A stretch of 62,467 nt of DNA, counting the filler, from Bdellovibrionota bacterium (GTDB lineage: Bacteria; Bdellovibrionota; Bdellovibrionia; Bdellovibrionales; JAEYZS01): NCBI GenBank assembly GCA_963169515.1. It is 6 parts of 6 records of this genome, joined end to end, with 100 filler letters (N's around TTAATTAATTAA, not from the genome) between each part and the next. Parts side by side here need not be neighbours in the genome. Positions count along the whole stretch, not along the records: positions 26,127 to 34,650 come from CAUJEF010000141.1; 5 more parts are not named here. One strand, given 5' to 3'. Below the pieces are notes generated by a model. The model saw only the letters and a list, made by a program, of their open reading frames with translations. It was not told the origin of the DNA and did not search any database. Of this stretch, positions 26,175-34,650 are shown piece by piece (within the stretch, counting starts at the first letter, position 1; the number at the start of each line of letters is the position of its first letter). The position numbers and the translations under genes were made by a program.

Positions 26175-28964
26175 CTACTCAGCCCACTCTGGTATCGGGA
26201 AGGAGTAAGGTCCACCAATTTTGGGTAGCACAAAAGATCCTGATGGCATTTCCCACACAGGCAAACCAAAATCATATGTTGAAAAATTTCCAGGTACAGC
26301 CATTTGTGCGCTTGTTAATGGCGTCATGTTAATCAAGTTTGGCGCGGCAATAACTCCACCGGCCTCATACTCAGGAAAAAAATCCGAGTTATAAAAATTT
26401 GTTCCATTTTCTAGTGATGTAGATGCACCCGAAAAAGTTCCAACAATAGGGCCAAATGTTGAGTCCGCTCCCGGCGCACCCGTAGCTTTAAATACTTTAC
26501 CCGTAGAATAATTTCTGCGAGCAGCATTGCTACCGTTCCTTTGAAGAACTCCAAATAATCCACCGACACTTTGCCCGCCACGAACATTACCATAAGCAAA
26601 ATTATCAGTTGCGCGATTTGTTGTTGTACGTATGTATCCCGATAATCCACCGACATACAAATTCAAGCCACCATCAACGCTTCCAACAGCAAAGTTTCCA
26701 ATTAAGTAACGATTAGAAGTCGTACTTCCACCCTCAAGTCCACCGACATAACTTCCATTACCAACTACATTACCAGCGGCATAAGATCGATAAATATTGC
26801 CACCACCAACGCCCACCAAGCCACCTGTATAAGCTCCACTACTTATAATGTTTCCTGTGGCATAGGTGTCACTCACATTTGTCGCCGTATCCTGTGAATA
26901 ACCTACCAGCCCGCCGGCCCTTGAAAAACCAATAACATTACCAGTAGCATAAGATAAACTAATCGTATGTTGGTTTTGGTAGCCAACAAGCCCCCCAATC
27001 TCTATACATTGCGCACACGTTACACTGCCAGTTGCGTATGACGAAGTAATATTTCCGCGGGAATATCCCATCAAGCCGCCAATGCGCTGATGAGTAAAAA
27101 CTGTCCCAGCAACAGTCACACTCACACTTCCTGTTGCATAACAATTTGTGCAATCAGCATTATTTTGCTCTGACGATCCAAGCAAGCCGCCAATGTATCT
27201 GACCGCCGCACTATCATCTGCCAAATCCGCAGAGATATTACCTTCTGCGTAAATATTTAAAAGATCTCCTGTCCCAAAATAGCGACCAACCAGACCCCCT
27301 ATGTACATCGGAGTTACTCCAGTTGTTGTCACGTTTCCCTCTGCATATGAATTTGTAATTGTTAATGTCGCACCAGATGAATATCCAACTAACCCGCCAA
27401 CATAATCCTCTTCACCCAGAACATTCCCTGTTGCAAAAGAATCATCTACCGTATCCCCATCATTCATTCCAATAAGGCCACCAATGTAAGTTATTCCACC
27501 TGTTACGCTTCCCGTGGCATAACAACTTTGAATTGTATCTGCTCGGTTGTAGCCAATCAAACCACCGCTATATGTTGCTGAACCACCAATCACATTTCCA
27601 GTTGCATAGCACGAATTTGTGGTTGGTGGTGCCGATCCCAAAGGCCGTGTTGCCGCCGCCGAAGTTCCTACAAGCGATGAAGCCGCTCCCTCCAGACGAC
27701 CAAATAATCCACCCACAGAATTGCCTCCGGAACGAGTAACCGTTCCAGTCGCATAAACGTCGGTGTAATCACCATATCCTTGACCAACTAGTCCGCCAAT
27801 ATTACTCGAACTGCCCGTGACATCAGCTGTACTGTAAACACGTTGTACATCTGAATTATCATCGTTTTCGCCTTGATATCCGATCAACCCACCTACGTTA
27901 GAGTTCCCCACAACAGTACCGCCAGACACATAGCTATCCACGATTAAAATGGAAGTTAAGTCGTTAATATACCCAATCAATCCGCCTGTATTATTTTTTG
28001 AATCTATTGTTACATTTTGCGCACTCGAGTTCGAAACGCTTAATGTTGATGCTCCACTGGTAACATGGCCGATCATTCCACCTGTTTCTCCTACAGATGC
28101 ATGACTTGTTGTAATTGCAATTGTATCCAAGTGAATATTTGAAAAAACATTTATTCCAGTGCGAACAACACCTACCAAACCGCCCGCACGATATAGGGCT
28201 TGTATCGTAGCATTTTTAATATAAAGATTTTGAATTGTCGCTCCTTGAGTTTCTCTAAACAACCCTTGATGGGTTGCCGTTGAGGTTATCGAAAAATTAG
28301 AAATTTCAAACGAGTGGCCTTCAAATGTGCCAGTGAATAAAGTTCCAATTGCGGTAAAGGCAGCGCCGCCAATATCAATGTCATTTCCCAGTTCAATTGA
28401 GGCCGATAGCACAGTACTGACATTTGAAAGCTGGACCGCCGTACAAACAATCCAAGGGGGAACCCCCGTTGTATTTGTATTCGCAAAAGTATCTAAACGT
28501 GCACTTGAGCTATCACAAGCGGTCGTAATTTTATTCAAAATACGTGTAGCAGGTAAACCGATCAAGTTGTCTTCTTCGTCAATCATCCGCGCATTCACAG
28601 TGACACTTCCCAACGCCGCAGAGGATGTGTTTACTGTCGCCGTCCATGTTTTATCAAGACCGCAAATTGTGTACCCTGTGGCGTCACCATAAATTTCTAT
28701 CGGTTTACCAGCCGTTCCACAGGTTCCTGATAATCTTTTTTGATAACCCACAGGCGAGCCGTCTGTAGCTGGGACAGTAATCGCAATGGTTAAATCATTA
28801 TCCGAAGGTACCTCTATGGTGTTGTCGGTGTTAAATAATTTATCGACACCACTCCCGTCGCTGCATCCAACAAAGCTAATCATAAGTAAAAATAGGATTG
28901 ATCTTATCTGCGTATGAACCCCTCGGCTAAGCATACAATAATTCAACCTTATGAAGTGTTTCAT
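26175..28964 (-). CDS. Large GLUG-repeat (beta-helix) surface lipoprotein, adhesin-like
   Basis: Lipobox-like FVG-C; Ig-like N-terminal segment; many YATGNV...GGLVG repeats; ATGA overlap with the motB stop. Confidence 0.85.
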   Translation of the reverse strand: MKHFIRLNYCMLSRGVHTQIRSILFLLMISFVGCSDGSGVDKLFNTDNTIEVPSDNDLTIAITVPATDGSPVGYQKRLSGTCGTAGKPIEIYGDATGYTICGLDKTWTATVNTSSAALGSVTVNARMIDEEDNLIGLPATRILNKITTACDSSSARLDTFANTNTTGVPPWIVCTAVQLSNVSTVLSASIELGNDIDIGGAAFTAIGTLFTGTFEGHSFEISNFSITSTATHQGLFRETQGATIQNLYIKNATIQALYRAGGLVGVVRTGINVFSNIHLDTIAITTSHASVGETGGMIGHVTSGASTLSVSNSSAQNVTIDSKNNTGGLIGYINDLTSILIVDSYVSGGTVVGNSNVGGLIGYQGENDDNSDVQRVYSTADVTGSSSNIGGLVGQGYGDYTDVYATGTVTRSGGNSVGGLFGRLEGAASSLVGTSAAATRPLGSAPPTTNSCYATGNVIGGSATYSGGLIGYNRADTIQSCYATGSVTGGITYIGGLIGMNDGDTVDDSFATGNVLGEEDYVGGLVGYSSGATLTITNSYAEGNVTTTGVTPMYIGGLVGRYFGTGDLLNIYAEGNISADLADDSAAVRYIGGLLGSSEQNNADCTNCYATGSVSVTVAGTVFTHQRIGGLMGYSRGNITSSYATGSVTCAQCIEIGGLVGYQNQHTISLSYATGNVIGFSRAGGLVGYSQDTATNVSDTYATGNIISSGAYTGGLVGVGGGNIYRSYAAGNVVGNGSYVGGLEGGSTTSNRYLIGNFAVGSVDGGLNLYVGGLSGYIRTTTNRATDNFAYGNVRGGQSVGGLFGVLQRNGSNAARRNYSTGKVFKATGAPGADSTFGPIVGTFSGASTSLENGTNFYNSDFFPEYEAGGVIAAPNLINMTPLTSAQMAVPGNFSTYDFGLPVWEMPSGSFVLPKIGGPYSFPIPEWAE

Positions 28965-29629
28965 TTTGGCTCAATGATAAGAGATAAAGTCCGAGAATTA
29001 CGACTTGCATCTGCAGAACCTTTCGCACTTACTCTGTCAATCGGCGTACCTAAACTTAAAGAATACTGTAAAGCCTTTGTGGCCCTCATTACACTAAGAT
29101 CGAAGTTATCCTTAAGCATACTATCATTTCTAAAAAAGGGCATTTGATCGGTATGTCCAACGAAAGTAATTTGGATTTGTGAATAATATGGAGTAAGACT
29201 TTTAAACAGAATACCCATTTGATTTTTTATATCAGACGTAACTTGAAATTGTCCCAAGCTATATATGTTGTCTGGAAACTCCAGAATGATTTTCTTTTTG
29301 CTTTCTTCAATTTTTATATCCAAACCTTTTAGCGCTTCAACAAGGCTTTTTGTTGGCATTCCCGCAATGCCGCTGGGACCTCTCGCGGAGCCCCCTCCCA
29401 TACCCGAACTTGTCGTTTTTAATTGGGTGTCTTTTAGAATTCGCTGAATTACATCTTGTTTAACCTCGCTATCGACAGAAAAGAAAAGAATAAAAAAGCT
29501 CAATAAAACCATCAAAAAATCAGCATAAGAAATAGCCCATAAATGTGTAGTTTCATCATCAACATGAAAATCATCGCTTCGTTCGATTCGTGGCAAGCGA
29601 GTTTTAATATCTTGATCCTCAAGCGACAA
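28961..29629 (-). CDS. motB: MotB-type stator subunit with OmpA-like peptidoglycan-binding domain
   Basis: WAISYADFLMVLLSFFILFFS with conserved Asp; GHTD, NFDLSVMRA, SR; GGAGG RBS before TTG 29629. Confidence 0.88.
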   Translation of the reverse strand: MSLEDQDIKTRLPRIERSDDFHVDDETTHLWAISYADFLMVLLSFFILFFSVDSEVKQDVIQRILKDTQLKTTSSGMGGGSARGPSGIAGMPTKSLVEALKGLDIKIEESKKKIILEFPDNIYSLGQFQVTSDIKNQMGILFKSLTPYYSQIQITFVGHTDQMPFFRNDSMLKDNFDLSVMRATKALQYSLSLGTPIDRVSAKGSADASRNSRTLSLIIEPK

Positions 29630-30326
29630 TCTGGGCCTCCGACATTTCACCTTCTATCAAGGCTTGTGGTTCATTCTGGTTGATTAATAAAATAACTTTA
29701 TACAAATTCTGTAGAATTCGTTTTCTATTTACAGATTTAATCTGAATACGATCTGCAAGTGGCGCAATAATGACGTTTGTTAAAAATAGACCAAAGAAAG
29801 TAGCGGTCATTGCAAGCGCTATGTTTTTTCCTAAAGTGTCTTTGTTGCTGTCAAGTGTTGAAAATAAACCGATCATGCCCATTACAGTTCCTGTGATACC
29901 AAGGCCTGGAGGATACTTTGCTAAATTTTTTAACGATTGAAGCGCTTCCAAAGTATCATTTTCTAGATGAGCTTTCTTTTGAGATAGCAATACTATGAAT
30001 AGATTTGAATCTATACCCTGACTCCATAATTCAGCAGCATAATTTATTAATGGATTTCGAGATGATGCGCCCAAGGCCCTTTTTTTGGATAGAGCTTCGA
30101 TTTCACCACGGTAGTCTTCAAATCGTTCATCTTTGCTAAAAAGACCCAGGATTTCTCGGAAAATAATTTTTATCCCAAAGTCTGGTGTAATTAAAAACAT
30201 GATCATCAGTGTTCCACCAACAACCAAATAAATTGCATGTTTTTGCAAATATTGGTTAAAGCTTCCTTCAACAGCCAATAAAACCATGGCCAACATTCCA
30301 AAAATGCCAAAAATCAAACTTTTCAT
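29619..30326 (-). CDS. motA: MotA-type stator subunit
   Basis: LVVGGT, PPGLGITGTVMGMI, IALAMTATFFG, IIAPLADRI; AGGAG RBS. Confidence 0.88.
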   Translation of the reverse strand: MKSLIFGIFGMLAMVLLAVEGSFNQYLQKHAIYLVVGGTLMIMFLITPDFGIKIIFREILGLFSKDERFEDYRGEIEALSKKRALGASSRNPLINYAAELWSQGIDSNLFIVLLSQKKAHLENDTLEALQSLKNLAKYPPGLGITGTVMGMIGLFSTLDSNKDTLGKNIALAMTATFFGLFLTNVIIAPLADRIQIKSVNRKRILQNLYKVILLINQNEPQALIEGEMSEAQIVA

Positions 30327-30438
30327 GATACTCTCCTAATTCATTAGTTCGACTCGGTAGACCTTTAACTTAAGGGATCTTCATAAGATAAAAAAAAAGT
30401 TATTTATGCCCTAATCCATAAGAATTGGAAAATTTAAT

Positions 30439-30465
30439 TAATTTTTAACCTACAGCTTCCGATTT
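30439..30465 (+). promoter_or_regulatory. Possible sigma28 (FliA)-type promoter
   Basis: TAATTTTT-N11-TCCGATTT versus consensus TAAAGTTT-N11-GCCGATAA. Confidence 0.35.
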
Positions 30466-30478
30466 TGATTTTAAGTAT

Positions 30479-31072
30479 ATGGAACAGTTTATTAACATTT
30501 TCAGATTCTGCCTGTTATTAACTTTAGTTGGTTGCTCGACTTTTCAAGGCATAACATCAACTACCGCGCCAAAATTTCCTGTTCTAGTTGTAAAAAGCGA
30601 TGTGAATGTTCGAACTTATGACGGAAAACAAGAAGCAAAGTCTGCAGGTCAAAAAATTGAAATGAACGACGGGCAGCCCATTTTGTTAGAGGCGCCAGGA
30701 AAAGTTAGTGTTCTGGTTTTGCCTACACAAGATTTATCCTCTGAAGTTACTGTGACTATGTCAGCTGTGCAAGAAATGGATATTAAAACTCAATCAATTA
30801 ATGCTGAACCTGTGCTAAACGATATTTTACCAAAAATCATTGAAATTCAAACCCTTTTAGCCAATAAACAGCCTCAAAAAGCAATGGAAAAATCAAAGTC
30901 TTTGCGGCAAACATATCCATTAATATCTTATTTAAAAGTCATAGAAGGAAGTTGCCTTGTCATGCTTGGAAAACTTGACGCAGCAAAAGTTCTTCTGAAA
31001 TCAGCGCTTGAGGATAATCCGGGGAACGAAACGGCACGCATCCTATTATCAAAACTTGAAGGAGTAAAATGA
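30479..31072 (+). CDS. Lipoprotein with C-terminal TPR-like repeats
   Basis: Lipobox LVG-C; G..LVMLGKLDAAKVLLKSALEDNPGN TPR pattern. Confidence 0.8.
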   Translation: MEQFINIFRFCLLLTLVGCSTFQGITSTTAPKFPVLVVKSDVNVRTYDGKQEAKSAGQKIEMNDGQPILLEAPGKVSVLVLPTQDLSSEVTVTMSAVQEMDIKTQSINAEPVLNDILPKIIEIQTLLANKQPQKAMEKSKSLRQTYPLISYLKVIEGSCLVMLGKLDAAKVLLKSALEDNPGNETARILLSKLEGVK

Positions 31073-32526
31073 GGTCTATCTCTATTATTATGATTTTTAT
31101 TTTTTCAATTCCCTCACTTGCTCTGCCGGAATTTGATCAGCTTTCTGCAATTAGAAGAAGTATTAAACAAGAAACTTCTAATATAATTCATAACATTGAC
31201 CCAAAAGCCTCCATTTACGTAAAATTAACTCCGGTTACTACAGAAATTAGTCTTCCCGGAACTCCATTTAACCTGGAAGATCTTACTTTAAAAAATCCAG
31301 AAGGCGCGATTATCCTAAAAGAAGTCAACATTAAGGTATTCACCAGACAAGACGATATACCAAAGGATTTTACTAATTATATAGAGCAGTATGTTTTTGA
31401 TGCGTATGGGGTGAAACCAACCATTGAAATAAGTAAATTTGACAATGCTCTCAACTGGAGTCGTCTTGTAATTTTTGACGTTTTAACAAAGCCGGAGAGT
31501 TTTATTACTGCTTTTTTAACCCTTATAATAGTCATTTTTTCCCTCGTCTTTGTGCTTTTTTATCGAACATCCAAAACAGAGTTCAATCGTACCTTAATCA
31601 AAGGGATCGATAAAATTTCCGAGTCTTTAGAATCAAGTCCCGACACACCTTATCTCGATAAGGATGAAAACAATAAGAGAGCTACAATTACCTCTGATGA
31701 AATGGATTTCGATAAAGATCTTATTGCAAATCTTCCAAACGAAGGACTTCTTAATTTGATCGCAGACTGTTATTGGTCCGAAAAAGATTCTTATGCCGCC
31801 TATGTTTGGAAATTTATTGGGATTGAAAAACGCAAGTACATTCTAGAACAAAGCACATGGCTAAAGGAATATTTAAAATATCTTGCAGAGGTTGCGCCAG
31901 AGCCTGGCAGTTATCATCAAGACCCATATTACCTCTCACCACTTCCACTTTGGCATTTGAATAATGACGAATTGGTAAAAGAAGTTAAAAAAAATAAAGA
32001 TCTTTTTTATCAATTACCACAATGCAGAACCGATAATATGCTAATAAGCGCAATAGAAAAAATTGGATTATTAAAATCAAAAAGCATCTCAAGTTCTGTG
32101 CACTTAGCAGATTTTAAAAACAAAAAAGCATCACAACCTCGTAAATTAAAAGTATCAATAAAACTTAATATTCAATCGATCGATGAGGAAAGAAAACTTT
32201 TAGAAGGTGGGCTGAGCTTTGAAATTATGGAGAGCATACCCTCTTTAGGATGGCTTTCTACTCTTTCTAATGAAAAAATTGAAGCTATTTTAAAAAATTT
32301 CAGTGCCGCAGAGCTTGCAAGTGCCTGGATCGGACCAGAGGAAGTCTTAGATAAATTAAAAACATGCATAGCTGAAAAAAAATTTAAATTATTGAATTCT
32401 TATTTGGAAAGAATAACACCTAATCGCTCCTCACGTGTTTTCTTTCTTTTACACAAATCTTCAATTGAAGAACTAAAAAATATGCATCATGAAAGCTTCA
32501 GCAATGACGCCAAAAAAGTTGCTTAA
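31069..32526 (+). CDS. Single-pass membrane protein: signal peptide, periplasmic FliF-RBM-like domain, TM, FliG-like cytoplasmic domains
   Basis: C-terminal LSTLSNEKIEAILKNFSAAELASAWIGPEEVLDKLKTCIAEKKFKLLNSYLERITPNR aligns by eye with FliG_C; one TM at about aa 145-165. Confidence 0.7.
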   Translation: MRSISIIMIFIFSIPSLALPEFDQLSAIRRSIKQETSNIIHNIDPKASIYVKLTPVTTEISLPGTPFNLEDLTLKNPEGAIILKEVNIKVFTRQDDIPKDFTNYIEQYVFDAYGVKPTIEISKFDNALNWSRLVIFDVLTKPESFITAFLTLIIVIFSLVFVLFYRTSKTEFNRTLIKGIDKISESLESSPDTPYLDKDENNKRATITSDEMDFDKDLIANLPNEGLLNLIADCYWSEKDSYAAYVWKFIGIEKRKYILEQSTWLKEYLKYLAEVAPEPGSYHQDPYYLSPLPLWHLNNDELVKEVKKNKDLFYQLPQCRTDNMLISAIEKIGLLKSKSISSSVHLADFKNKKASQPRKLKVSIKLNIQSIDEERKLLEGGLSFEIMESIPSLGWLSTLSNEKIEAILKNFSAAELASAWIGPEEVLDKLKTCIAEKKFKLLNSYLERITPNRSSRVFFLLHKSSIEELKNMHHESFSNDAKKVA

Positions 32527-33118
32527 ACAATCAGTTTACATCGTGCTGTGGTTGGTTTTAATGCCCATCCCTGTTCACGCAGATTCTATCGTAACCTACA
32601 TTCCCAAGGTAAATAGTGAGCCACAGAAACAATCACTTTATTTTTTGTCGGGTATTGGGTCTTACACAACACAGTATGCATCCCTTCAGGGAATCGATTT
32701 TGGAGTCGGATACAAAATAGCTTTCAGTGCAAAATGGGCTATGACAACCTCTGTTAAACAGTCTTTAAATATCAGCGGGTTTAAAAACTTAAACTCTGAA
32801 ATATCGCTCGGAGCTTCTTACGCCCTTAACAGACATTACTCAGAACGACAAAAAATCACATTGAATGGTATCGAAATGGCTGATGTTCGTCCTTATTATG
32901 AAAAGGGAATTTTTATTATAGGAAATATAGTACAATATTTTTTTAATGGGTCACAAAATGTAGTTCCCTTAACTGGTATTGGCTTTGGTGGATTATATCA
33001 TTTCGAGTCTAGCGGCAAGACCCAAACACATGTGGGGCTTAGTTATAATTTCGCACAGAATGAAGCAAATACGATTTCTACTATCAAAGTACTTTTTGGT
33101 TTCAGCTATTTTTTATAA
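32489..33118 (+). CDS. Small outer-membrane beta-barrel (start possibly 32504)
   Basis: Signal peptide (PVHA), about 8 amphipathic strands, C-terminal VLFGFSYFL beta-signal. Confidence 0.75.
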   Translation: MKASAMTPKKLLKQSVYIVLWLVLMPIPVHADSIVTYIPKVNSEPQKQSLYFLSGIGSYTTQYASLQGIDFGVGYKIAFSAKWAMTTSVKQSLNISGFKNLNSEISLGASYALNRHYSERQKITLNGIEMADVRPYYEKGIFIIGNIVQYFFNGSQNVVPLTGIGFGGLYHFESSGKTQTHVGLSYNFAQNEANTISTIKVLFGFSYFL

Positions 33119-33123
33119 TACTC

Positions 33124-33804
33124 TCATCTGCTATAATCTATCACTTCTATAGGGACTGTGAGCGGCTCTGGAATACCTTGCATATCCCATTTAGCAAATT
33201 CTTCAGCATAGTCTTGATAATATTCTCGCCGCTCGCTCTGATATAGGTGAAGTTTCCATAATTCTATACTAGGTGGACCTGGGACCAGAAGAATTCCATC
33301 TCGCAAATAAAGAATCCCTGTGTTTTCGAGAAACCTAAAATCAACAAAAACTGAGTTCTCTGGTCTTACGCCAATCGTGTCCGGCCCAACCTCTGGGGTT
33401 GTTATAAAGATTCCGGTCAAGTCCTCATTGTAATCCGTAATATATCCCGAATAATAAAAAGGAGTCCAACCCGCCCGCAACCCTTTGGTCTTCAATATTT
33501 CTTGCAATCCTTCTTTGCTAGTATAGTGGCGAAATACTTTTCCCTCTGAAGAAATGAGTTTAAGCGTCGGCGGCATCCCTACCCTAATTCGAATATAATG
33601 GGGCTCCTCTACGAACAGTTTATTTCTTTCCATCCCTCTCTTTGTTTGAGAAGCTTCAATCATATTTTTTGCAATCTCCAAAGAGGGATGATCGTTACCA
33701 AAGAGCGCATGACATGTGTCCAAAGCCTGAACAGGAAAAGACAATAAAATCGATATGAGCATCACCATACTCGGAATAATACCAGTCTTTATGAAAGTTT
33801 TCAT
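33124..33804 (-). CDS. Secreted protein with ADP-ribosyltransferase-like (Tox-ART-HYD1-like) domain
   Basis: Signal peptide; FRHYTSKEGLQEILKTKGLRAG...GIFITT. Confidence 0.6.
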   Translation of the reverse strand: MKTFIKTGIIPSMVMLISILLSFPVQALDTCHALFGNDHPSLEIAKNMIEASQTKRGMERNKLFVEEPHYIRIRVGMPPTLKLISSEGKVFRHYTSKEGLQEILKTKGLRAGWTPFYYSGYITDYNEDLTGIFITTPEVGPDTIGVRPENSVFVDFRFLENTGILYLRDGILLVPGPPSIELWKLHLYQSERREYYQDYAEEFAKWDMQGIPEPLTVPIEVIDYSR

Positions 33805-33839
33805 ATAAATTCTTAATTCAAATTTCTTGCCACCTGAGC
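33788..33839. repeat. 52-bp direct repeat, copy 1
   Basis: 50/52 identical to 34599-34650. Confidence 0.95.
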
Positions 33840-33873
33840 CGGTAATTCATCTGAATTCAATTAAGTGAAGTGT

Positions 33874-34182
33874 TTAAGCCACTTCTTTCTCTGCTTGCCA
33901 GATATCAAGTTGAACTTGCAAGTTCATCCACATTCTGGGGTTCGTTTTTAAAACTTTACTGATGAGTACAGCGAACTCAGCACTCATGGCTCTTTTTCCA
34001 CTGATCACCTCATTGAGTTTGGTCTGAATAGTGGATTTCTTTGACTGTCCACCAGAGGCATTTGCAAGTAGATCTGCAAAATGGGATTGTGTGTATCCCA
34101 GTTCGTCCAGCCAAAGTTCTTTAAGAATTTCTCCTGGATGAGTAGGTTGCCTTGTCGGCCTTTTTTTTGTTAATTTAGCCAT
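33874..34182 (-). CDS. higA: HigA-family antitoxin
   Basis: PTHPGEIL, LNEVISGKRAMS, WMNLQ. Confidence 0.92.
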   Translation of the reverse strand: MAKLTKKRPTRQPTHPGEILKELWLDELGYTQSHFADLLANASGGQSKKSTIQTKLNEVISGKRAMSAEFAVLISKVLKTNPRMWMNLQVQLDIWQAEKEVA

Positions 34183-34190
34183 ATAGTCTC

Positions 34191-34487
34191 CTAGTGATAG
34201 TCTTCTATTTTAACATTCACAAACTCATGATCGATAAACTGAAAGGTGATTCTCCAACCAGAAAGTTTGTGTACATCTATCGCCCAATCACCCTTGCGAT
34301 TACCAGTTAATGGGTGAAGGCGGATGCTGGGTGGGAATCCCTTCATTTTTAAATCTTCAAGACTTTCAACAGCTTCCATAACATCTAGCAAATGAATGGC
34401 TCTTTTCCAGTATTGCCTTGGTAGGCCCTTACAAGAGCCCTTGTGGAAAAGGTCGTAGGCCAACTTATTACCAAAGTCTTTTATCAT
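34191..34487 (-). CDS. higB: HigB/RelE-family toxin
   Basis: PPSIRLHPLTGNRKGDWAI, WRITFQF, EDYH; toxin-first gene order. Confidence 0.92.
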   Translation of the reverse strand: MIKDFGNKLAYDLFHKGSCKGLPRQYWKRAIHLLDVMEAVESLEDLKMKGFPPSIRLHPLTGNRKGDWAIDVHKLSGWRITFQFIDHEFVNVKIEDYH

Positions 34488-34598
34488 GATGAACCCTCAA
34501 GAAGCTATTCCACAATACTATATTACGGTAAAACAGTAAAGAATTATCTTAATTCTCGCCCATAGCCTCGAGAACTGCGCCTCAAGCCATCATGCGGT

Positions 34599-34650
34599 TT
34601 TATGAAAGCTTTCATATAAATTCTTAATTCAAATTTCTTGCCAACTGAGC
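34599..34650. repeat. 52-bp direct repeat, copy 2 (runs into the contig end)
   Basis: 50/52 identical to 33788-33839. Confidence 0.95.

Follow-up and report, generated by a model that had tools for sequence, protein, structure and literature searches.

The window analysed here is a 62,467-nucleotide stretch of DNA from a Bdellovibrionota bacterium (assembly GCA_963169515.1), and six genes at positions 26175..33118 raise the question of whether the core of a flagellar motor can serve a machine other than the flagellum. One set of three encodes a MotA/MotB stator pair and a large surface lipoprotein (hereafter the cargo), while the divergent set encodes a TPR protein, a membrane protein related to FliF and FliG, and an outer-membrane beta-barrel. 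The six products very probably function jointly and apart from the flagellum, and the device that they would form probably rotates, although here our confidence is clearly lower. The complete chain, in which rotor and stator form a device of their own, distinct from the flagellum, that moves or holds a large surface lipoprotein, is put forward tentatively, at slightly under even chances. It draws on the folds of the fusion and the barrel, the co-inheritance of the genes, a MotB whose proton site and wall-binding motif are intact, a separate MotA clade, a FliA-type promoter and a short motif found in many otherwise unrelated cargoes; from these, we infer ring formation, the contacts among the parts and rotation.

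The window consists of six contigs joined by N spacers, and the whole module lies on a single contig of 8,524 bp (C141). All six open reading frames (ORFs) were located where the original prediction had placed them, and the shared intergenic region (predicted at about 150 bp) measures 152 bp. The overlapping stop and start codons were likewise confirmed, with overlaps of 4, 32, 4 and 38 bp between adjacent genes. The Pfam matches of the six proteins were MotA_ExbB (E 1e-14), MotB_plug, Glug (nine stretches, E 1.9e-28) and TPR_19, and the scan of the 485- and 209-residue proteins gave no meaningful match. The prediction had also noted that no rod, hook, filament, export-gate or chemotaxis gene is found on the contig, which carries almost no weight on so short a contig; flagellar genes lie elsewhere in the genome. 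The features are as follows.

26175..28964, minus strand: large surface lipoprotein (cargo/adhesin) of 929 residues, with a lipobox cysteine, then a VDKLF motif, then a GLUG-repeat body
28961..29650, minus strand: MotB of 229 residues, with one membrane helix carrying the proton-binding Asp44, a plug region and an OmpA-like peptidoglycan-binding domain
29619..30326, minus strand: MotA of 235 residues, from a dedicated short subfamily; the cytoplasmic helix of the Glu98-equivalent is missing
30347..30373, minus strand: FliA (sigma28)-type promoter candidate for motA-motB-cargo, TTAAG-N16-TCGAAC, 8/11 matches
30438..30464, plus strand: FliA-type promoter candidate for TPR-fusion-barrel, TTAAT-N16-CCGATT, 9/11 matches
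30479..31072, plus strand: putative periplasmic adaptor of 197 residues, with a lipobox, a beta-rich domain and a short TPR domain
31069..32526, plus strand: natural fusion of FliF-RBM3, membrane helix and FliG(M+C), putative rotor subunit of 485 residues
31126..31452, plus strand: within the fusion, periplasmic domain resembling a ring-building motif (RBM), with a beta-hairpin insertion (residues about 20-128)
31699..32487, plus strand: within the fusion, cytoplasmic FliG middle and C-terminal region (residues about 211-473)
32489..33118, plus strand: modelled eight-stranded outer-membrane barrel of the OmpA/NspA kind, 209 residues, with an extra beta-hairpin (residues 118-136) that probably faces the periplasm

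Among representatives clustered at 50% identity, 361 sequences are related to the 485-residue protein at E<=0.001. Relatives with names come mainly from Bdellovibrionota. The structure model of the protein (143 sequences, mean pLDDT 88.7) begins with a signal peptide and an alpha/beta domain into which a hairpin is inserted (residues 20-128); a single membrane helix and a helical part in the cytoplasm follow. Foldseek ranked FliG 1lkv first (E 2.6e-3, probability 0.98), with FliF RBM3 rings and SpoIIIAG also among the top rows, and returned no match below E 0.001. With VIA-align, the N-terminal domain was aligned to FliF 6scn (Z 7.6, root-mean-square deviation (rmsd) 4.7, 97 residues aligned), EscJ (Z 8.1) and SpoIIIAG (Z 7.3), and residues 211-473 to FliG M+C (Z 7.6) and FliG-C 1qc7 (Z 6.7, rmsd 3.7, 85 residues). 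Direct sequence likeness to FliG and FliF is weak, as seen in the PDB profile search (E 0.23-0.36) and in the search of the genome with the A2 profile, which found neither its FliG nor its FliF; therefore, the assignment rests on the folds and on bridging relatives. Profiles link the fusion family at 99.1% to 13 distant operon-mates, two of which have above-cut-off Pfam matches to both FliG_C and FliG_M; with these two Pfam-positive rows excluded, the other 11 distant fusions still ranked the genome's FliG first (E 0.0017). The RGD motif of this genome's FliF is present in many distant fusions, and in the ESM Atlas the fusion points to FliG_C/FliG_M fusion clusters (score 0.90). The model thus contains both the FliG M+C fold on which the prediction depended and an RBM fold, and we confidently interpret the protein as an RBM3-like periplasmic domain, a membrane helix and FliG M+C domains.

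This modelled architecture is not that of a complete FliF, which has two membrane helices and RBM1-2-3 and can house an export gate: behind its signal peptide, the fusion has a periplasmic domain of about 110 residues and a single membrane helix, and a PF01514 search matched the separate canonical FliF only, leaving the fusion unmatched. The EHPQ motif, presumably the FliM-binding motif of FliG, is present in the genome's FliG and absent from the fusion. Two smaller FliG-like proteins were also noticed. A stand-alone FliG_C-like protein of 155 residues adjoins a Tad/CpaF-type ATPase gene (L002:1399-1866, G000 C30), and a 118-residue protein (L115:9717-10073) with no operon around it matches just the C-terminal FliG-like end of the fusion family.

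The gene set recurs in dozens of loci, far beyond chance, and the co-conservation expected for the six genes was therefore recovered. A fusion profile built from six rows matched 35 of the 401 genomes of the phylum searched, 31 of them strongly, giving 42 distinct loci after duplicates were merged. Within five genes of the fusion, these loci contain the TPR gene in 36 cases, the barrel in 34, motA in 31, motB in 31, a large surface protein in 29 and all five in 21, with several of the misses located at contig ends; because related genomes are non-independent, no P value is given. The commonest order is TPR-motA-motB-fusion-barrel-cargo, and the divergent layout of our locus is a variant seen also in L011, L014, L060 and L139/L140. 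No linked export gate, rod, hook, FliM or FliN gene recurs around the 42 loci. Independent searches of the phylum with barrel and MotA profiles gave matches about 3 kb apart in six genomes outside the profile sets, and in these six the operon takes a more distant form. When a profile was made from the distant fusions, it matched 129/401 genomes at E<=1e-12; the 15 of these loci that were examined all have a TPR gene near the fusion, nine have the colinear TPR-motA-fusion-barrel core (by profiles), and a lipoprotein above 1,000 residues is among the listed neighbours in eight. Twelve held-out metagenome contigs, several with fusions less than 50% identical to earlier ones, present the same neighbours where their length permits, except L135 (TPR only) and L137 (none). 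Mean identity is 21-24% for the fusion, TPR and barrel proteins, and mirror-distance correlations among the five proteins are modest (0.08-0.51) and were not used as support.

Other forms of the fusion were also observed. A second variant, with a FliG fusion of 780-800 residues, TPR and motAB (L095:3251-14105, L128, L129), is common in family f23 and in L095 stands in tandem with a 578-residue variant. In genus g70 (L084, L086, L087), the fusion occurs with the TPR gene only or alone, without barrel, motAB or cargo, and is possibly a degenerating or repurposed form. Weak barrel-profile matches in L110, L116, L117 and L118 were set aside, as no fusion adjoins them.

The MotA of the module follows the fusion closely. 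Operon-type MotA (E<1e-70) was found in 26/401 genomes and the fusion in 25 of these 26, the remaining one being represented by a 2.2-kb contig with TPR-motA-motB. In a tree of 47 rows, the 12 close operon MotAs group together (SH-aLRT 96) and the genome's two other stators (C7 and C31) fall outside this clade; a second tree agrees on the separate clade with weaker support. The tree places operon MotA with MotA and not with ExbB/TolQ, and the PRK09109 flagellar model (cut-off 237) gives 277 bits to the C7 MotA and 58 bits to that of the module. Thus, the grouping with ordinary flagellar stators that would have spoken against the prediction was not observed in these trees. A flagellar-type stator has a square-fold membrane domain and at least four helices at the torque interface of MotA; the module MotA can be aligned over its full length with the C7 MotA (98.8%) but is about eight residues shorter in the torque region. 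In MotB, D44, G165, H166, D168, N182 and R220 are invariant in 31/31 operon rows, and the protein has the proton-binding Asp, the plug and the OmpA-like wall-binding domain of a flagellar-type ion transporter. A divergent MotA-like gene with a very long tree branch also occurs at G000 C164:10612-11631, its MotB-like partner being cut by the contig end.

The host genome (2.38 Mb in 173 contigs, listed as 96% complete) contains a canonical flagellar set elsewhere, with fliG-fliH-fliI, fliF, flhA and seven flagellin-family matches, together with ten MotA/ExbB-family matches that include the C7 and C31 motAB pairs; the check for separate fliFG and motAB recommended with the prediction was therefore positive. 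In each of the other strong carriers (30/30), a single canonical FliF and a single FlhA were found, in some cases divided between contig ends, together with flagellins. One FliF and one FlhA per carrier indicate that there is no second export system and that the module is additional to the flagellum.

Both operons of the module appear to be preceded by FliA-type sites (9 and 8 of 11 positions), judged against the attack-phase FliA consensus TTAAG-N16-CCGATA of Bdellovibrio bacteriovorus (PMC3627812, in the passages available). Sites with at least 8/11 matches precede 35/48 TPR-labelled genes (a set from which the module's own gene, one near-identical pair and one false member were not removed), against 50/199 other first genes in the same loci, 153/827 in the genome and about 10% in shuffles. 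Among internal genes, they precede motB in 3/43 cases, the fusion in 4/53 and the barrel in 4/51. An initial and stricter sigma28 pattern, used before the switch to the published consensus, had matched 8/53 regions only, and a sigma70 scan gave nothing over chance. In many related loci, the -10 box often ends 7-10 bases ahead of the TPR or cargo start codon, which suggests leaderless transcripts. Three RNA runs contained only 0.06-0.10 of the sequence words and gave scattered contigs of 150-270 bp at a depth of 2-4; two of the runs may be DNA, and the three provide no evidence of expression or habitat.

On the periplasmic and outer-membrane side, the TPR gene had been predicted to encode a lipoprotein; it does have a lipobox here, but about half of the TPR proteins are without one (18/45, by a crude rule). 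Its beta domain gave PEGA matches in 3/9 distant relatives, one of them above the cut-off. The 209-residue protein, whose gene is single-copy in the genome, is modelled as an eight-stranded barrel (pLDDT 90.7) with NspA as its best match (Z 19.4, rmsd 3.1, 146 aligned). The extra hairpin follows strand 4 and would lie on the periplasmic side according to strand topology. The predicted GLUG adhesin is present in our locus as a lipoprotein, although it is one of many cargo types: across loci, cargoes range from about 700 to 3,000 residues and are built from varying mixtures of invasin/Big Ig domains and laminin-G, NHL, Kelch and GLUG repeats (17 cargoes were scanned, then four more). Behind the lipidated cysteine, a hydrophobic-Asp-x-hydrophobic-hydrophobic motif was found in 12/22 cargoes and 2/162 other lipoprotein-like ORFs of the genome, a contrast blunted by the fact that the pattern was drawn from the cargoes themselves. 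In a held-out test, 6/12 cargoes scored above the 99th background percentile and 9/12 above the 90th, and a few unrelated ORFs scored high too. We regard this apparent lipid-proximal motif as a moderate lead.

These cargoes could also be explained by an ion-powered translocator, in which the motor would move the lipoprotein through the outer membrane or pass it to a translocon, as GldLM does in type IX secretion, and the motif would be an export signal. Unrelated giant cargoes have just the lipobox and this short motif in common, and the gene next after the barrel is often that of the cargo (in L068, a cargo homologue adjoins the barrel gene). Nevertheless, OmpA-class eight-stranded barrels have no protein-sized lumen, and the single barrel is modelled with eight strands rather than the at least 12 of a translocon-type barrel with a protein-conducting lumen. 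Export through the barrel is therefore unsupported, eight strands being too narrow for an export pore. Larger channels, ATPases and chaperones do not recur in the loci, and the scheme would require an oligomeric pore or a translocon encoded elsewhere; a translocator is unlikely, if still worth keeping in view.

Compared with known systems, the module is closest to the flagellar motor core, with which it shares an RBM3-like domain with hairpin, the FliG M+C fold, a flagellar-type MotA, and a MotB with plug, proton-binding Asp and OmpA-like domain. In contrast to that core, the putative rotor is one naturally fused chain that lacks RBM1/RBM2 and any recognisable FliG-N, the loci are without export gate, rod, hook, FliM and FliN, the torque charges are remodelled, and the proteins encoded alongside are a TPR protein, a barrel of eight strands and a cargo lipoprotein. 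The type IX/gliding machinery (GldLM, GldKN, SprB) also combines an ion-driven 5:2 motor acting on a ring with a large adhesin, but the likeness is a functional analogy only, as GldLM is non-homologous to MotAB (PMC13104615, in part). The ring of the module would be FliG-based and in the inner membrane, no large translocon recurs, and the cargo is an N-terminally acylated lipoprotein; the six proteins matched no type IX family in Pfam/NCBIfam, in scans that were not aimed at these families. ExbBD, TolQR, AglRQS and ZorAB use a homologous A/B ion-channel core for non-flagellar work, whereas in the module the B subunit has a plug and an OmpA-like domain, which are flagellar-type traits according to the available part of a stator survey (PMC12505986), the A subunit groups with MotA, and a FliG-like partner is present. 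In the passages seen of that survey, FliG is mentioned once and no such group is described. Our full-text literature search, outside of which most subscription papers fall, found no account of an operon that combines a natural FliF-FliG fusion with MotAB, a barrel and an adhesin.

A possible relative exists in B. bacteriovorus HD100, where Bd3013-Bd3021 (motAB2) matches the variants L119/L121/L122 in gene sizes and order only. In these variants, a protein of 575-585 residues matches the distant-fusion profile, and the L119 copy has Pfam FliG_C/FliG_M matches. The HD100 region differs by an extra gene of 320 residues, a second short barrel-like gene and the lack of a giant cargo among the neighbours that are listed. 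Judged by the sizes and arrangement of its genes, Bd3014-Bd3021 looks like a distant variant of the module. The 'rose-like complex' of attack-phase HD100 cells, which spans the periplasm and has a 17-nm cytoplasmic ring, was considered and is only a weak lead, since the HD100 look-alike is mostly silent and the authors, in the part of their report available, suggest type I secretion (bioRxiv 2022.06.13.496000).

Several observations weigh against a stand-alone rotary device. For the rotor, unrelated ribosomal KH and OsmC folds tie with the RBM match in the VIA-align comparison of the N-terminal domain (Z about 8), and direct profile likeness between the fusion and this genome's FliG is weak (hhalign probability 6%, E 0.006). 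As for the gene set, motAB is absent within five genes in 11/42 loci, about seven of them with ample flank (in the L113 genome, operon-type motAB lies elsewhere and not beside the fusion), operon-type MotA is missing from 6/31 fusion genomes, a large cargo is not nearby in 13/42 loci, and the cargo motif is loose in distant ones. All 30 tested carriers are flagellated, and therefore independence from the flagellum cannot be shown by absence; in addition, FliA drives flagellar genes as well, and flagellin genes adjoin three loci (L063, L064, L066). In the HD100 look-alike, six genes were flagged as silent in both attack and growth phase and Bd3019 as growth-phase (PMC3627812, excerpts). The torque interface adds to this list: canonical torque transfer pairs MotA R90 with FliG D289 and MotA E98 with FliG R281 (PMC6680979). 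In the module family, the R90- and R281-equivalents are kept (97% and 99% basic), whereas the D288/D289-equivalents are 8% and 0% acidic (Ser and Tyr in the module protein) and the MotA helix carrying the E98-equivalent is deleted. As each canonical charge pair is short of one partner, ordinary torque transfer is unsupported, and with just half of the charges kept the rotation originally predicted is weakened.

Such non-complementary breakage of the torque charges would suit a non-rotary contact sensor or a Tol/Ton-like transducer, in which the load on the adhesin would be passed to the ring and gated or reported through MotAB without continuous spin. The loci from which motAB is missing point the same way, as do the SpoIIE phosphatase gene flanking the L119-type variant and the kinase gene after the barrel in L133. 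However, the MotB proton-binding Asp and wall anchor are kept in 31/31 rows, FliG K438 and R453 are 99% basic and MotA R83 is 97% basic in the family alignments, and the close group has no conserved signalling gene; we therefore consider a sensor or transducer distinctly unlikely. Acidic residues are newly conserved at MotA positions 75, 99, 106, 108 and 120, and might face the basic FliG helix.

The flagellated state of the tested carriers, the FliA-type promoter and the flagellin genes beside three loci would also be expected if MotAB were a spare stator of the polar flagellum and the other genes accessory or merely co-regulated. Reportedly, from the title of Morehouse et al. 2011, all three motAB pairs of B. 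bacteriovorus contribute to the motility of one flagellum. HD100 motAB2 is indeed counted in print as a spare flagellar stator (PMC11323537 and bioRxiv 2025.02.19.638989, both in part). The same sources, as far as their available text goes, also hold evidence to the contrary, FliL having bound MotB3 and not MotB2 in HD100 (PMC11323537) and motAB3 being universal while motAB1/2 are patchy (bioRxiv 2025.02.19.638989). Moreover, the module MotA belongs to a separate clade without the E98 helix and is tied to the fusion in 25/26 genomes, and a spare stator would leave the second FliF-FliG ring, the barrel and the cargo unexplained. An auxiliary flagellar role is thus improbable.

The surroundings of the module have features of their own. 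A higA-higB toxin-antitoxin pair (33874-34487) is enclosed by a 52-bp direct repeat (33788-33839 and 34599-34650, 96% identity) that also begins contig C156, and the region 33788-34650 may be an insertion site. Over 30-34 kb, the G+C content is only 0.35-0.37, the genome value being 0.425. Convergent with the barrel gene, a secreted-looking orphan of 226 residues (33124-33804, minus strand) has a sub-threshold Tox-ART-HYD1 match only (E 0.074) and no homologue in the related loci. The nearby higBA module, the lower G+C, the patchy spread and the low mean identity (21-24%) could be taken as signs of a decaying relic of a second flagellar system or of chance clustering. Nevertheless, the reading frames are intact, residues are invariant, gene order is conserved over many families, the promoter is conserved and there is no second FlhA or FliF, which already largely refutes this explanation and makes it highly improbable.

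Returning to the stand-alone rotor-stator device, we propose that copies of the fusion would assemble, by way of the RBM3 and FliG domains, into a single ring in the inner membrane that has neither export gate nor rod nor switch. Wall-anchored MotA5B2 units would turn this ring by ion flow, probably in one direction only, and would contact it through a remodelled interface in which a basic helix of FliG would lie opposite acidic patches on MotA. The periplasm may be bridged by the hairpin of the RBM domain together with the TPR adaptor and the periplasmic hairpin of the barrel, while the barrels would be an outer-membrane mount, not a pore, gripping the cargo by its lipid-proximal motif. In the attack phase, the motor might then spin, sweep or tension the adhesin for surface or prey contact.

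To our knowledge, FliG rotors are known from flagella only. It is possible, though somewhat doubtful, that the module represents a new class of rotary nanomachine, with a one-protein FliF-FliG rotor, its own MotAB, a barrel mount and an interchangeable giant adhesin. If true, this would be the first example of a FliG-based motor that is not part of a flagellum, existing in several variants in up to a third of the sampled Bdellovibrionota genomes and in a laboratory-tractable form in B. bacteriovorus. A ring of FliG served by a stator of its own, without any export gate, would show the torque core working alone on another load, which would bear on the origin of the flagellar motor and on its minimal size, and the module would offer a living model of a minimal or ancestral flagellar motor. 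It would likewise be a candidate for unexplained surface motility or prey attachment in predators: according to a 2026 review (PMC13104615, in part), the motor, the adhesins and the transmission of force behind Bdellovibrio gliding are unidentified, and the module is a candidate that can be tested for a part in handling surfaces or prey. MotAB pairs regarded as 'extra', for instance motAB2 of HD100, would then be reinterpreted as parts of another machine.

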